Assembly (NCBI RefSeq): GCF_002854065.1
Contig: NZ_CP024147.1
Strand: one strand, 5' to 3'
Source: Escherichia coli
GTDB taxonomy: Bacteria > Pseudomonadota > Gammaproteobacteria > Enterobacterales > Enterobacteriaceae
DNA length: 64,000 bases
Under the pieces are notes generated by a model that was not told the origin of the DNA, did no database searches, and was given only the letters and a program-made list of their open reading frames with translations. Shown here in pieces: positions 7,740 to 56,798 of the stretch (its first letter is position 1; each line of letters opens with the position of its first letter). Both the position numbers and the translations under genes were made by a program.

Positions 7740-8801
7740 TTATTCTTGCGCTATTTGCCCATCGGGCCAGGCGTGGATCACGGCTTTGATCAGCGTCGCC
7801 AGTGGAATGGCGAAGAATACGCCCCAGAATCCCCACAAACCACCGAAGATCACCACCGATAAAATAATCACCAGCGGATGCAGGTTAACCGCTTCGGAGA
7901 ACAACACCGGTACTAACAGGTTGCCGTCCAGCGCCTGAATAATCAGATACACTGCGAAGCAGCTCCAGAATTCCGTGCCTGCACCAAACTGGAATAGCGC
8001 CACGCCAACCACCGGAATGGTCACCACAAATGCGCCAATGTACGGAATAAGTACCGAGAAGCCGACCAGCACCGCCAGCAGCAGCGAATAGTTCAGCCCA
8101 AAGAGCAAGAACCCCAGCCAGGTGGCGATCCCCACCACGATCATCTCCAGCACTTTGCCGCGGATATAGTTGGTGATTTGTTGATTCATCTCCTTCCACA
8201 CCTGTCCTGCCAGTCCACGGTTACGCGGCAGCACCCGGCGAACGGCATTCAGCATCTGCTCTTTGTCTTTCAGCAGGAAGAAGACCATCAATGGCACCAG
8301 CACCAGATAGACAGCTATGGTCAGCAAACCGACCAGCGAGGCGAGGGAAATTTTCACCACCGAATCGCCCATGGTCAGCATCCGACTGCGCATATTTTCG
8401 GCCATTGCATCAATAATGCCCGCATCCATTAACGCCGGATAGCGGCGCGGCAACGTGGCGGCAAAGTCAGAAAGCTTATTGAGCATCCCCGGCATATCGC
8501 GGATTAAGTAGATGCCCTGTTGCCAGGCGATAGGCAGTACCACGAACGCCATCAGTAGCAATATACCGACAAAAACCACCAATACAATCGACGTCGCCCA
8601 GCGGCGGGAGCAGCCAATAGATTGCAGGCGCACGGTTGGCCATTCCAGCAAATAGGCCAGCACAATAGCCACCAGCAACGGAGCAAGCAGGCCACTAAAG
8701 AAAAAGATAATGCCAAATCCGGCAACTAAAATAACCAGCAAGGCAATCGCTTCCGGGTCGCTAAAACGGCGGCGATACCATTGCATCAACATTTCGAGCA
8801 T
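7740..8801 (-). CDS. perM: Putative permease PerM (YfgO; AI-2E transporter family)
   Basis: 353 aa membrane protein, convergent with focB. Confidence 0.85.
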   Translation of the reverse strand: MLEMLMQWYRRRFSDPEAIALLVILVAGFGIIFFFSGLLAPLLVAIVLAYLLEWPTVRLQSIGCSRRWATSIVLVVFVGILLLMAFVVLPIAWQQGIYLIRDMPGMLNKLSDFAATLPRRYPALMDAGIIDAMAENMRSRMLTMGDSVVKISLASLVGLLTIAVYLVLVPLMVFFLLKDKEQMLNAVRRVLPRNRGLAGQVWKEMNQQITNYIRGKVLEMIVVGIATWLGFLLFGLNYSLLLAVLVGFSVLIPYIGAFVVTIPVVGVALFQFGAGTEFWSCFAVYLIIQALDGNLLVPVLFSEAVNLHPLVIILSVVIFGGLWGFWGVFFAIPLATLIKAVIHAWPDGQIAQE

Positions 8802-10994: not shown

Positions 10995-11696
10995 CTACAA
11001 CTTCAGAATTTCTTTCACAAACGGAATGGTCAGCTTACGTTGCGCGGTAATCGACGCACGATCCAACTGATCCAACGTCATAAATAGCGTGCGCATTTCT
11101 CTGTCGAGCCGCTTCAGCAAGAAACGCCCAACATCTTCCGGCAGTTCAAAACCACGCAAACGCGCGCGTAACTGTAGCGCCTGCAACTTATCTTCATCAG
11201 AAAGTGGCTGCAATTTGTAGATCTGCCCCCAGTCGAGTCGCGACGCGAGATCCGGTAATCCCAGATTCAACTGCCGCGGTGGACGATCGCCGGTGATCAA
11301 CAACCGTGTTTTGCCCGATTCCAGAATTCGATTGTAGAGATCGAAAATCGCCATCTCCCACAACTCATCGCCTGCAATACACTCAATGTTGTCGATACAG
11401 ACCAGCGACAAATGCTCCATACCGTCGAGCACTTCCGGAACAAACCAGGTGCGTTTATCCAGCGGGACATAGCCCACCGCATCGCCACGCTGCGACAATT
11501 CCGCGCAAGCCGCGTGCAGCAGATGGCTGCGCCCCGCGCCTTCGCGTGCCCAGAGATAGATGTAACCGCTATGTTCCTGACGCAGCACGTTTTGCAGCGC
11601 GGCCAGTAAAGAGGAGTTATCCCCCGGCCAGAAACTTGCAAAGGTTTCGTCGTCAGGAAGATAAAGTGGCAAAGAGAGCTGTGCCGGTGTGTTCAG
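10995..11696 (-). CDS. hda: DnaA-inactivating protein Hda (RIDA factor)
   Basis: ATG-initiated ORF 10995..11741 (248 aa); the functional protein is reported to start at an internal CUG (here codon ending at 11696) giving 233 aa; AAA+ motifs present. Confidence 0.85.
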
Positions 11697-11790: not shown

Positions 11791-13080
11791 TTATTTGTCT
11801 GTTATATCCGCGTCTTCTGCGTCCAGCACCACTTCTTCAGGGCGCAGCACACTGATCAGTTTGAAAATCAAACTTAAGCCGATACCGACGATGGTCGCCA
11901 GCGCCATACCTTTCAACTCCGCCGCGCCGATGTTTACCTTCGCGCCACTGACGCCGATGATCAAAATCACGGAAGTCAGGATCAGGTTCTGTGCTTTGTT
12001 GTAATCCACTTTCGATTCGATCAAAACACGAATACCGGAAGCACCGATGACACCATAAAGCAGCAGCGAAACGCCGCCCATTACCGGCAATGGGATCATC
12101 TGGATAGCGGCAGCCAGTTTACCGACGCAGGAAAGCAGGATAGCGAAAATCGCCGCCCCGCCGATAACCCAGGTACTGTAAACACGGGTGATCGCCATCA
12201 CGCCAATGTTTTCTCCGTAAGTGGTATTTGGCGTAGAGCCAAAGAAGCCGGAGATCACGGTCGACAGGCCGTTAGCAAACATCGAACGGTGCAGACCTGG
12301 ATCGCGCAGCAGATCTTTTTTGACGATATTAGCCGTTACTACCAGGTGCCCTACGTGTTCGGCAATAACCACTAACGCCGCTGGCAGAATAGTCAGAATG
12401 GCAAACCACTCGAAGCGCGGCGTATAGAGGGTTGGCAGCGCAAACCAGTGAGCATTAATAATCGGCGTGGTATCGACAATTCCCATTGCGAAAGAGAGCG
12501 CGTACCCCACCAGCACGCCAATTAAAATCGGGATAATTGCCATGAAACCACGGAACAGCACGGAACCTAAAACCGTGACCGCCAGGGTGGTAATAGAGAT
12601 GATGATGGTTTTGGAGTCTGGCGTTTGCCCTTCAGCCGGGAGCAAACCCGCCATACCGGCAGCTACGCCCGCCAGCTCCAGACCGATGACGGCAACGATT
12701 GCGCCCATTGCCGCAGGTGGAAACAGCACGTCCAGCCAGCCGGTCCCCGCTTTCTTCACGATAAAAGAAACAAGGCAGAACAGCACGCCGCACATAATAA
12801 AGCCGCCCAGCGCGACTTCATACCCCAACGGCAACAGTAGCAATACCGGTGAAATAAAGGCAAAGCTGGAACCAAGATAAGCCGGAATTTTCCCTTTACA
12901 GATGAAGAGATACAGCAGCGTTCCAATACCGTTAAATAACAGTACAGTCGCCGGGTTAATATGAAATAAGACGGGCACCAGGACGGTTGCACCAAACATG
13001 GCGAACAAATGTTGCAAACTAAGCGGGATTGTCTGTAAAAGTGGCGGTCTTTCACTCACCCCGATAGCACGGCGCGTCAT
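11791..13080 (-). CDS. uraA: Uracil:H+ symporter UraA
   Basis: 429 aa from [11 protein letters not shown]...; polytopic NCS2 family transporter. Confidence 0.9.
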
Positions 13081-13792: not shown

Positions 13793-14036
13793 ACTCTTTC
13801 TCCTTTGAGGGGCAGCCACAAAAAAAATCGACGGATTATACCTCCTTTCTTCAAGGCGGCAATATTATTTTCGTTGACTTTAGTCAAAATGATAACGGTT
13901 TGAGATAAAGTTATTTTATATTCAAATGGTTATGAAAGAAGATTATTCCATCCGAAAACTAACCTTTGCCCTGGCACAAGTCTTCTTTCGCCGCGCGCCT
14001 GGGGAAAAGACGTGCAAAAAGGTTGTGTAAAGCAGT

Positions 14037-14052
14037 CTCGCAAACGTTTGCT
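14037..14052 (+). promoter_or_regulatory. PurR operator (PUR box) of the purMN operon
   Basis: tCGCAAACGTTTGCtt matches the 16 bp PurR palindrome consensus, about 65 bp upstream of the purM start. Confidence 0.7.
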
Positions 14053-14098
14053 TTCCCTGTTAGAATTGCGCCGAATTTTATTTTTCTACCGCAAGTAA

Positions 14099-15153
<1,055 letters not shown>

Positions 15154-15154
<1 letters not shown>

Positions 15155-15792
15155 TGAATATTGTGGTGCTTATTTCCGGCAACGGAAGTAATTTACAGGC
15201 AATTATTGACGCCTGTAAAACCAACAAAATTAAAGGCACCGTACGGGCAGTTTTCAGCAATAAGGCCGACGCGTTCGGCCTTGAACGCGCCCGCCAGGCG
15301 GGTATTGCAACGCATACGCTCATCGCCAGCGCGTTTGACAGTCGTGAAGCCTATGACCGGGAGTTGATTCATGAAATCGACATGTACGCACCCGATGTGG
15401 TCGTGCTGGCTGGTTTTATGCGCATTCTCAGCCCGGCGTTTGTCTCCCACTATGCCGGGCGTTTGCTGAACATTCACCCTTCTCTGCTGCCGAAATATCC
15501 CGGATTACACACCCATCGTCAGGCGCTGGAAAATGGCGATGAAGAGCACGGTACATCGGTGCATTTCGTCACCGATGAACTGGACGGTGGCCCGGTTATT
15601 TTACAGGCGAAAGTCCCGGTATTTGCTGGTGATACGGAAGATGACGTCACCGCCCGCGTGCAAACCCAGGAACACGCCATTTATCCACTGGTGATTAGCT
15701 GGTTTGCCGATGGTCGTCTGAAAATGCACGAAAACGCCGCGTGGCTGGATGGTCAACGTCTGCCGCCGCAGGGCTACGCTGCCGACGAGTAA
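15154..15792 (+). CDS. purN: Phosphoribosylglycinamide formyltransferase PurN
   Basis: 212 aa; start overlaps purM stop (TAATG). Confidence 0.9.
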
Positions 15793-26989: not shown

Positions 26990-27120
26990 GGGCAATATCT
27001 CGACCAGAGTGGTTAATAAATATTGCCGCGGCATTATACAGAGCGTAACCGATTGCATCTACCCCTTTTTGCAAAAAATGCTTGCTATCCCCGAAGGGCG
27101 GGTTACTATCGACTGAATAA

Positions 27121-42852: not shown

Positions 42853-42962
42853 GTTTATTCTCTTTCTGAATATAAAAATGAACCCTCAACGCTTCCCTCA
42901 ATGTTTGGGGAGCCATGCGGGTTCAATCATACACGGGAAGCGAGGCGCTTCCCATCACGTTA

Positions 42963-44081
42963 TTATTTTTCGACCTGCTGAACGTCAATTCGACGCGCTT
43001 CGTCCAGCTGACTGGCTTTCGCACGAATGCGTGCTTCCAGCTGGTCGATCATATCGTTGTTGTCCAGACGGTCTTTGCGCACGCCATCTTCATAGAGGCC
43101 GCTTTTCTTGTTGCCGCCGGTGACGCCGAGTGTAGAAACCAGCGCCTCACCCGGGCCATTCACCACGCAGCCGATAATCGAAACGTCCATCGGAGTGATG
43201 ATATCTTCCAGGCGTTGCTCCAGCGCGTTAACCGTACCGATAACATCAAACTCCTGACGCGAACAGGTCGGACAGGCGATGAAGTTGATACCTCGCGAAC
43301 GGATACGAAGCGATTTCAAAATATCGAAACCGACTTTGATCTCTTCGACCGGATCGGCCGCCAGTGATACGCGCAGCGTGTCGCCGATGCCTTCAGACAG
43401 CAGCAAACCTAAACCAATGGCGGATTTTACTGCCCCGCTGCGCGCGCCACCCGCTTCGGTGATCCCCAGATGCAGCGGCTGATCGATTTGTTTTGCCAGC
43501 AAACGATAAGACTCAACAGCGAGGAAGACGTCAGACGCTTTCACGCTGACTTTGAACTGATCGAAGTTCAGGCGATCGAGATGATCAACATGACGCATGG
43601 CGGATTCCAGCAACGCCTGCGGCGTCGGTTCGCCATACTTTTCTTGCAGATCTTTTTCCAGCGATCCGGCGTTAACGCCAATACGGATCGGAATGTTTTT
43701 ATCGCGCGCACAGTCAACCACCATGCGAATACGCTCTTCATTACCGATATTGCCAGGATTAATACGCAGACAATCGACGCCGTATTCCGCTACTTTCAGC
43801 GCAATGCGATAGTCGAAGTGGATGTCAGCCACCAGCGGCACGTTAACCTGCTGTTTGATGAGTTTGAACGCTTCTGCCGCGTCCATCGTCGGTACAGATA
43901 CACGGACGATATCAGCGCCAACGCGTTCCAGCGCCTTGATTTGATTGACCGTTGCTTCGACGTCTGTCGTACGCGTATTGGTCATGGACTGTACGGCGAT
44001 GGGAGCACCATCGCCAATCGGCACATTCCCAACGTAAATACGTGTTGATTTTCTACGTTGAATTGGAGCCTGGTTATGCAT
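42963..44081 (-). CDS. ispG: 4-hydroxy-3-methylbut-2-enyl diphosphate synthase IspG (GcpE)
   Basis: 372 aa; Fe-S cysteine motif (CPTCSR). Confidence 0.95.
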
Positions 44082-55731: not shown

Positions 55732-55812
55732 GTTGAAATACTCTCTTTTATGCCTGGCTGTGTCAAGATAATAAACAGAGTAATTATTCAAACATGAGAG
55801 TATTATTCTTAA

Positions 55813-56116
55813 TGGCCCTTTTCGCCGTCTCGCAAACGGGCGCTGGCTTTAGGAAAGGATGTTCCATGACCGTAAATACAGGCACCCCACAGTGCTTGCT
55901 ATCGCGGCAATATCGCCAGTGGTGCTGTCGTGATGCGGTCTTCGCATGGACCGCACAATGAAGATACGGTGCTTCTGTATCGTACTTATTGTTTCTGGTG
56001 CGCTGTTAACCGAGGTAAATAATAACCTGAGTCTCTCCGGCAACAATTTACTGGTGGTTAACAACCTTCAGAACAGCAGGTAAGCCCGAATGCCGCCCTT
56101 TGGGGCGGCATATTTA
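55813..56116 (+). ncRNA. ryfA: ryfA-like transcript, copy 1 (putative type I toxin mRNA)
   Basis: TATTAT -10-like box at 55801-55806; strong hairpin terminator GCCGCCC-ttt-GGGGCGGC plus T run at 56092-56116; span about 304 nt. Confidence 0.5.
55958..56083 (+). CDS. Small hydrophobic protein (41 aa, MKIRCFCIVLIVSGALLTEVNNN...), candidate type I toxin (TimP-like), copy 1
   Basis: ATG overlaps by ATGA the stop of an upstream 31-codon ORF (55866..55961) that has an ideal SD (AGGAAAGG, 7 nt spacing); N-terminal 17-residue hydrophobic segment; stop 8 nt before the terminator hairpin. Confidence 0.45.
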   Translation: MKIRCFCIVLIVSGALLTEVNNNLSLSGNNLLVVNNLQNSR

Positions 56117-56314
56117 GATTATCCGATTCTGTTTAAAGTCACGCAAAAAACCACCCCAGCGACGTTCATAGAATGGCGCAATATGTTCGATATTAAAATG
56201 ACCTGGCTTATTAGTCCGAATTCAGACAAATATAAACAAATCCCGCTCAATATTAAAAATACTAACCGGTAAAAGATATTACTTAAACATGTAAATTCAC
56301 TTTCTTTAAGCAAC

Positions 56315-56345
56315 AAAAAACCGCCAAAATCAGGCGGTTATTTGT
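56315..56345. terminator. Bidirectional hairpin terminator, copy 2 of the repeat unit
   Basis: AAAAAA-CCGCC-aaaatca-GGCGG-TTATTTGTT. Confidence 0.6.
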
Positions 56346-56414
56346 TGCCGGTTTGGTTCGCGGCCTCTCCAGCAGATTGACTTGTGTTGCATGAGCAACG
56401 CAGGTGCTTCACAG
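56318..56414 (-). ncRNA. Candidate divergent antisense sRNA, copy 2 (RyfB/TimR-like)
   Basis: Conserved TTGACA -35 on the - strand (56445-56450), AATATT -10-like box about 18 bp downstream; 5' core 56401-56415 matches 56560-56574 in the copy-2 ryfA-like 5' region. Confidence 0.35.
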
Positions 56415-56494
56415 CAGAGCAATATTCGCCAGCAACTCTCTTTTTGTCAAGCAAAAGAGAGTAATTATTGTTTATTTAGCGTATTATCGACACC

Positions 56495-56798
56495 GGCCCT
56501 TTCCGCCGTCTCGCAAACGGGCGCTGGCTTTAGGAAAGGATGTTCCGTGGCCGTAAATGCAGGTGTTTCACAGCGCTTGCTATCGCGGCAATATCGCCAG
56601 TGGTGCTGTCGTGATGCGGTCTTCGCATGGACCGCACAATGAAGATACGGTGCTTTTGTATCGTACTTATTGTTTCTGGTGCGCTGTTAACCGAGGTAAA
56701 TAATAACCTGAGTCTCTCCGGCAACAATTTACTGGTGGTTAACAACCTTCAGAACAGCAGGTAAGCCCGAATGCCGCCCTTTGGGGCGGCATATTTTA
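56495..56798 (+). ncRNA. ryfA: ryfA-like transcript, copy 2
   Basis: Same architecture as copy 1; terminator hairpin 56773-56790 with a T run overlapping the sseB stop codon. Confidence 0.5.
56639..56764 (+). CDS. Small hydrophobic protein (41 aa), candidate type I toxin, copy 2
   Basis: Identical protein to copy 1 (single synonymous difference TTC to TTT); preceded by a GTG-initiated 31-codon ORF (56547..56642) with the same SD and ATGA overlap. Confidence 0.45.
   Translation: MKIRCFCIVLIVSGALLTEVNNNLSLSGNNLLVVNNLQNSR

Follow-up and report, generated by a model that had tools for sequence, protein, structure and literature searches.

The operators recognised by LacI/GalR repressors have a central CG and A/T-rich half-site cores in common, and in the PUR box, the operator of the family member PurR, the central CpG is where PurR kinks the DNA in the PurR-purF operator structures. 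Regulation is said to cover a 5- to 17-fold range, a figure credited to He et al. 1990. Cho et al. count the purMN operon as one of the IMP-synthesis units under repression by PurR-hypoxanthine, and for an involvement of purR in purMN regulation they cite Meng et al. 1990 (PMC3159470). The role of the corepressor in PurR binding is likewise taken from the literature. PurR ChIP-chip in MG1655 located the purM-purN motif, TCGCAAACGTTTGCTT, at 2,619,140-2,619,155 within a bound region of 2,618,847-2,619,484, and the enrichment at purM-purN was log2 2.08 with adenine versus 0.98 without it (Cho et al. 2011, PMC3159470). When the upp-purM intergenic region was cloned in multicopy, it gave a phenotype that the authors ascribed to titration of PurR and FNR, and deletion of the PurR sequence from the high-copy upp-purM plasmid led to a weaker titration phenotype (PMC3266220). 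In most of the regulon the PurR site lies over the promoter; exceptionally it works as a roadblock further downstream (PMC6245113).

The locus described here lies in a 64-kb stretch of E. coli chromosome (the window), in which arsC, hda, uraA and upp share one strand and purM, purN and ppk1 the opposite one, according to the RefSeq annotation of an identical region. The 1-kb stretch around the site was matched over at least 80% of its length in 5424 of 5426 complete E. coli genomes, with 100% identity in three strains, 100416, D8 and CUWW06. The first-pass annotation had placed a 16 bp palindrome, tCGCAAACGTTTGCtt, at 14037-14052 and named it the PurR operator of purMN. Direct reading of the sequence puts this string, the same as the published TCGCAAACGTTTGCTT, at 14038-14053, a shift of +1, while 14037-14052 reads CTCGCAAACGTTTGCT, i.e. 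those coordinates are one base too far left. The description as a 16 bp palindrome holds for the inner 12 positions, GCAAACGTTTGC at 14040-14051, which are perfectly self-complementary, and fails for the outer two on each side, which mismatch. The central CpG falls on 14045-14046, the palindrome centre and positions 8-9 of the box, and 64 bp lie between the end of the box (14053) and the purM GTG (14117). In MG1655, where purM occupies 2,619,219-2,620,256 (PMC3266220), the published motif starts 79 bp before the purM start codon and therefore maps exactly to position 14038 of the window. The elements of the locus are as follows.

14038..14053, no strand assigned: PUR box (PurR operator) of the purMN promoter, TCGCAAACGTTTGCTT, from direct reading, the published motif, position weight matrix (PWM) scoring and conservation.
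14040..14051, no strand assigned: perfect 12-bp palindromic core GCAAACGTTTGC with the central CpG, from its single exact match and the Enterobacterales alignment.
14038..14043, plus strand: expected -35 hexamer TCGCAA, inside the PUR box, predicted from the spacing to the conserved -10.
14058..14066, plus strand: extended -10 TGtTAGAAT (TG at 14058-14059, TAGAAT at 14061-14066), from the alignment, with a presumed -10 function.
14072..14074, plus strand: predicted start of purMN transcription, 6-8 nt past the -10 and deduced from its position.
14104..14108, plus strand: Shine-Dalgarno-like GGGGA 5' of the purM start codon, with GGGG kept in 17 of 17 aligned Enterobacterales.
14117..15154, plus strand: purM (phosphoribosylformylglycinamidine cyclo-ligase), with a GTG start, the first of the genes under operator control, from mapped RefSeq annotation and the open reading frame (ORF) list.
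15154..15792, plus strand: purN (phosphoribosylglycinamide formyltransferase), the operon's second gene, which shares one base with the purM stop, from mapped RefSeq annotation and the ORF list.

The purR gene is absent from the 64-kb window, and an E. coli genome is expected to carry it. In MG1655 it is found near 1.74 Mb, going by the coordinate of the purR motif (PMC3159470).

The PWMs drew on Table 1 of Cho et al. 2011 (PMC3159470), which lists 28 motif instances, and were built with either the purMN site omitted or all three window sites omitted, the latter leaving 25 training sites outside the window. The purMN box scored 17.2 bits when only purMN was omitted and 17.46 bits (p = 6.3e-7) when all three were, which passes the FIMO cut-off of p < 1e-4 applied by Cho et al. 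(PMC3159470), so the PWM scan that had been proposed as a check comes out in favour of a PUR box. Furthermore, the consensus CGCAAACGTTTNCNT, the published PurR consensus as quoted in PMC3266220, has a single match in the window, an exact one at the purMN box (14039-14053), and the resemblance to a PUR box claimed in the first-pass annotation is thereby borne out. Allowing up to one mismatch, the expectation for this consensus is 0.19 matches, and at least one turned up in 16 of 100 shuffles. The core GCAAACGTTTGC also has one exact match in the whole window; a loose search of the 64 kb for the 12-mer with up to two mismatches found 2 sites against 5.6 expected, an absence of enrichment that is uninformative. 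In leave-one-out scoring the purMN box ranks 19th of the 28 published sites, which range from 7.4 to 25.3 bits, and it falls below the median because of the T at position 1 and the TT at positions 15-16.

Scores of this size leave some room for the view that the palindrome arose by chance and has no regulatory role. Hits at the score of the purMN box are expected 0.08 times per 64 kb under a zero-order model and 0.18 times under a first-order Markov model, 49 of 300 simulated first-order Markov windows (16%) reached it, and an equally good 16-mer is present inside uraA. Over the whole window the match is thus only moderately surprising, while within the upp-purM intergenic region of about 325 bp the expectation is approximately 4e-4 by arithmetic from the PWM p-value. 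The PWM score alone is indecisive in 64 kb, and the case therefore rests on position, conservation and outside evidence.

Conservation was followed at 120 purM loci across the Proteobacteria, one genome per species, picked by a degenerate DNA pattern for a PurM peptide; because nothing but this pattern was used for selection, the choice of loci is independent of the box. The 330 bp upstream of the PurM peptide were scanned with the PWM lacking the purMN site. A PUR box was found in 16 of 16 Enterobacterales (13.7-17.8 bits, 99-112 bp before the PurM peptide, or 167 bp in Mangrovibacter), in all seven Vibrionales (15.7-25.5 bits, 113-118 bp) and at both Aeromonas loci that represent the Aeromonadales (14.4-21.0 bits, 121-122 bp), and these three are the orders from which a PurR regulon is known. 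The best upstream score was at most 11.3 bits in 16 Alteromonadales, about 37 other Gammaproteobacteria, one Orbaceae, one Betaproteobacterium, two Epsilonproteobacteria, one unclassified proteobacterial MAG and 32 of 33 Alphaproteobacteria, and control scans of adjacent coding DNA reached a maximum of 13.4 bits.

In a MAFFT alignment of 17 enterobacterial upstream regions, the sole conserved intergenic island consists of CTCGCAAACGTTTGC, six variable bases and CTGtTAGAAT. Within it GCAAACG[T/A]TTGC, central CG included, is invariant in 17 of 17 Enterobacterales, as are the CTG and TAGAAT columns, while the rest of the intergenic DNA is unalignable and conservation ahead of the coding sequence is otherwise limited to the ribosome binding site GGGG and the GTG start. 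Among E. coli genomes, the 30-mer made up of the box and 7 bp on each side is matched without a mismatch over at least 28 bases in 5418 of 5426, in one copy per genome; the 81 bp surrounding the box differ in 373 genomes, and the 1 kb surrounding it has less than 99% identity in 1134.

A chance palindrome would not account for a box that keeps a constant spacing to purM in Enterobacterales, Vibrionales and Aeromonadales between flanks that cannot be aligned, nor for its invariance in those 5418 E. coli genomes, and in-vivo PurR occupancy is published for this very sequence (PMC3159470). Coincidence is accordingly an extremely improbable explanation. A second view accepts an operator and assigns it mainly to another LacI/GalR regulator, for example Cra/FruR, CytR or GalR, with PurR binding incidentally through a shared AAnCGnTT core, and the general likeness of operators in this family, down to the central CG and A/T-rich half-site cores, lends it some plausibility. 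Against it, the protein targeted in the ChIP-chip work was PurR itself and the response to adenine was as expected for a hypoxanthine corepressor. At ±5/6 the outer GC agrees with the PurR motif derived from 25-27 PurR sites, the controlled gene belongs to a purine-biosynthesis operon, and the box is confined to the three orders from which a PurR regulon is known. A site that serves chiefly another family member is consequently highly improbable, and PurR stands as the regulator.

Three loci outside the common pattern are recorded here in their own right. A Pseudorhodobacter MAG (L025) has AGTTAAACGATTGCCC, 15.9 bits, 99 bp upstream of the PurM DAGVDID codons, the only strong PUR-like box upstream of purM outside the Enterobacterales, Vibrionales and Aeromonadales and at a distance like that in enterics; other Rhodobacteraceae have no such box. 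It may be a chance match (an estimated 0.1 or so are expected over all negative loci), a site for a different LacI-family protein or the product of a mis-binned contig. Mangrovibacter yixingensis (L115) carries an insertion of about 60 bp in the purM leader, between the -10 and the start codon, with ends that form the terminal inverted repeats GCGCACTACCC...GGGTAGCGC and with a resemblance to a small REP- or MITE-like element. This leader insertion is the reason why its PUR box is 167 bp from the reference peptide, and the box/-10 block is undisturbed. Upstream of purM in Orbaceae bacterium ESL0727 (L044), which is related to the enterics, the best score is 3.4 bits, without a PUR box, which suggests that PurR control of purM was lost or is absent in that lineage.

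The conserved island also outlines a promoter. The extended -10 TGtTAGAAT begins 4 bp past the end of the box, and a 17-bp spacer puts the -35 at TCGCAA (14038-14043), the first six bases of the box, with a 3/6 match to TTGACA. From the position of the -10 and the 17-bp spacer it follows that the operator takes in the -35 position together with ten spacer bases. A consensus promoter scan did not report a plus-strand promoter for purM because the -35 is weak, and the -10 was instead obtained from the cross-species alignment. Transcription of purMN is predicted to start near 14072-14074, which would place the box at about -35 to -20, and the wording "28 nucleotides upstream" in PMC3266220 fits this start if it is counted from the box centre.

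With the box at the -35 and next to the extended -10, promoter function must constrain part of the same DNA, and some of the conservation of the box could reflect this second role as the -35 region. Taken further, the coincidence with the -35 position and the abutting invariant extended -10 raise the prospect that the whole block is conserved mainly as the purMN core promoter, to which a repressor contributes little. The -35, however, is a poor match (TCGCAA, 3/6), and extended -10 promoters depend little on the -35. All 12 core positions are invariant, including spacer positions without a promoter role, while Vibrionales and Aeromonadales retain a PUR box in the same place with other outer bases. 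PurR-dependent occupancy and repression are, moreover, published for purMN. Conservation chiefly as a core promoter is therefore very improbable, and an operator that is laid over a promoter is the reading retained.

Meanwhile, a perfect 12-bp inverted repeat might act as nucleic-acid structure, as a cruciform or a transcript hairpin, and not as a protein site. This particular repeat leaves no spacer for a loop, the best regional fold is -4 kcal/mol with z = -1.85 (11 of 200 shuffles were equal or better), and an Rfam scan gave no match at or near the site. The alignment shows invariance of the sequence itself. Furthermore, the box is probably untranscribed, since it is upstream of the predicted purMN start and behind the divergent upp promoter. 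A structural role has a vanishingly small probability, which leaves PurR binding as the function of the palindrome.

The evidence taken together makes it almost certain that 14038-14053 is a PUR box through which PurR controls purMN, with the bound repressor most likely excluding RNA polymerase. All of the sequence-level defining features of a PUR box that were tested were observed, and no observation speaks against the assignment. The assignment to purMN made in the first-pass annotation is upheld, in that the box is the same as the published PurR ChIP-chip motif in both sequence and mapped position, and conservation and promoter placement agree with it. In the proposed mechanism, dimeric PurR with hypoxanthine or guanine bound would occupy the near-palindromic box and cover the -35 and most of the spacer, up to 4 bp before the extended -10. 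There it would most likely keep RNA polymerase off the purMN promoter by a presumed steric exclusion, and the result would be less transcription of purM and purN, which provide steps 5 and 3 of de novo IMP synthesis, respectively. When purines are scarce, PurR without corepressor would come off the DNA and the purMN operon would be expressed. The invariant extended -10 that adjoins the box across the Enterobacterales makes it clear why repressor and polymerase should compete.

Besides the purMN box, the window holds two other published PurR motifs. In the guaB-xseA gap, 27043-27058 on the plus strand reads GCGTAACCGATTGCAT, the published guaB-guaA PurR ChIP-chip motif (PMC3159470), and scores 15.0 bits with a PWM untrained on the site. 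It is one base off the MG1655-based prediction, and this offset implies that the strains differ by a 1-bp indel somewhere between purM and guaB. On the minus strand at 8741-8756, in the perM (yfgO)/bepA (yfgC) region, CCGGAAGCGATTGCCT is the published "yfgO/yfgC" PurR motif (PMC3159470) with 13.6 bits. By the ORF list, CCGGAAGCGATTGCCT is within the 5' end of the 353-aa perM ORF (7740..8801), approximately 45-60 nt after the ATG, and this perM-internal location contrasts with the description by Cho et al. of all PurR binding regions as intergenic (PMC3159470). A PUR-like 16-mer in hda, ACGCGCGCGTTTGCGT at 11154-11169 on the minus strand, was considered and set aside; its 13.6 bits are at chance level, with 0.76 expected per window, and it is probably meaningless.

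The top PUR match of the window is a different one, ACGGCAACGATTGCGC at 12689-12704 on the plus strand, with 18.05 bits and 0.056 expected per window. It is located inside uraA (CDS 13080..11791, minus strand), over codons 126-131 and the invariant peptide GAIVAV, in the divergent upp-uraA operon and 1.35 kb from the purMN operator, and it is one base off the published yieG box; its MG1655 equivalent is at about 2,617,791 (U00096.2 numbering). The uraA-internal box is not among the sites in the published PurR ChIP-chip table (PMC3159470), and a literature search found no report of PurR acting on uraA. Two Citrobacter and two Enterobacter species carry ACGGCAACGATTGCGC unaltered, and E. albertii has it with a single change; eight other genera have lost it through synonymous changes, and it drifts freely at synonymous positions in genera that are more distant. 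Every base of it is kept in four of the five genera whose uraA identity is about 82-84%, where it is one of just three islands of conservation in the gene. A seemingly striking conservation, a zero-variation window of a kind seen in 1% of windows, was discarded because the taxa had been chosen post hoc as those that retain the box. With taxa fixed in advance, retention of this degree is found in 4.8% of same-frame windows for 13 taxa and in 15 of 415 when the five taxa with 82-84% identity are used, and at about 4-5% of windows it is only marginally unusual. On these sequence comparisons the uraA box is a candidate for a purB-type PurR roadblock that has so far gone unrecognised, although an unlikely one, and it could instead be a chance or codon-driven match. 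If true, such a roadblock would make the uptake of uracil depend on purine status in Escherichia, Citrobacter and Enterobacter.

Several other elements of the window were recorded in passing. The upp promoter, at 13862-13835 on the minus strand, consists of TTGCCG, a 16-bp spacer and TATAAT (10/12 matches), and 3' of it on the same strand is GATTTTTTTTG (13829-13819), in the T-run start region. This is presumably the initially transcribed region of upp that serves UTP-sensitive start-site selection and reiterative transcription. An FNR site published for the upp-purM intergenic region (PMC3266220) corresponds to window 13874-13887. In the alignment, FNR/CRP-like sequences of the form TTGAT-N4-ATCAA or GATC-N4-GATCAA occur at the matching place in Photorhabdus, Rahnella, Acerihabitans and two Enterobacter loci. 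The Rfam scan found two full-length copies of the ryfA sRNA (316 and 314 bits) on either side of an IS128 sRNA match, at 55812-56116, 56147-56357 and 56493-56797 on the plus strand, and the two copies around IS128 imply that the ryfA locus is tandemly duplicated in the window strain. The same scan placed sroE at 42872-42963 on the minus strand and ES036/CssrF at 34351-34393.

The purMN operator is thus an already known one, identical to the site in the E. coli PurR regulon, conserved and ordinary, and the remark in the first-pass annotation that there was nothing unusual about it is a fair one. The value of the present assignment is a correct annotation, in which PurR ties the expression of purM and purN to purine availability. 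It is a textbook case of a corepressor-dependent LacI-family repressor on a promoter and will not surprise a specialist.

Compared with the E. coli K-12 purMN operator, the site has the same 16-mer, the same 79 bp from the start of the box to the GTG and the same flanking genes; the window strain is non-K-12, and there is no difference in the operator. With the purF, purT, purHD, purL, purC and purEK boxes (consensus ACGNAAACGTTTGCNT) it shares the 16-bp format, the central CpG and the AAACGTTTGC core. It is weaker at the outer positions, with T at position 1 and TT at 15-16 where the regulon usually has A and GT, and scores 17.2 bits versus 25.3 bits for purT; its differences from the strongest boxes (purT, purHD and purF) are confined to these outer, less informative positions. 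The published site most similar to it is the xanP box, TGGCAAACGTTTGCTT. The overlap of the box with the promoter is the usual arrangement according to Cho et al. (PMC3159470) and PMC6245113. The roadblock sites of purB and purR, in transcribed or coding DNA, involve the same protein and the same type of box, but they block elongation downstream of the promoter, whereas the purMN box is upstream of the predicted start and most likely acts on initiation. In this window the roadblock class is relevant only to the PUR-like box inside uraA.
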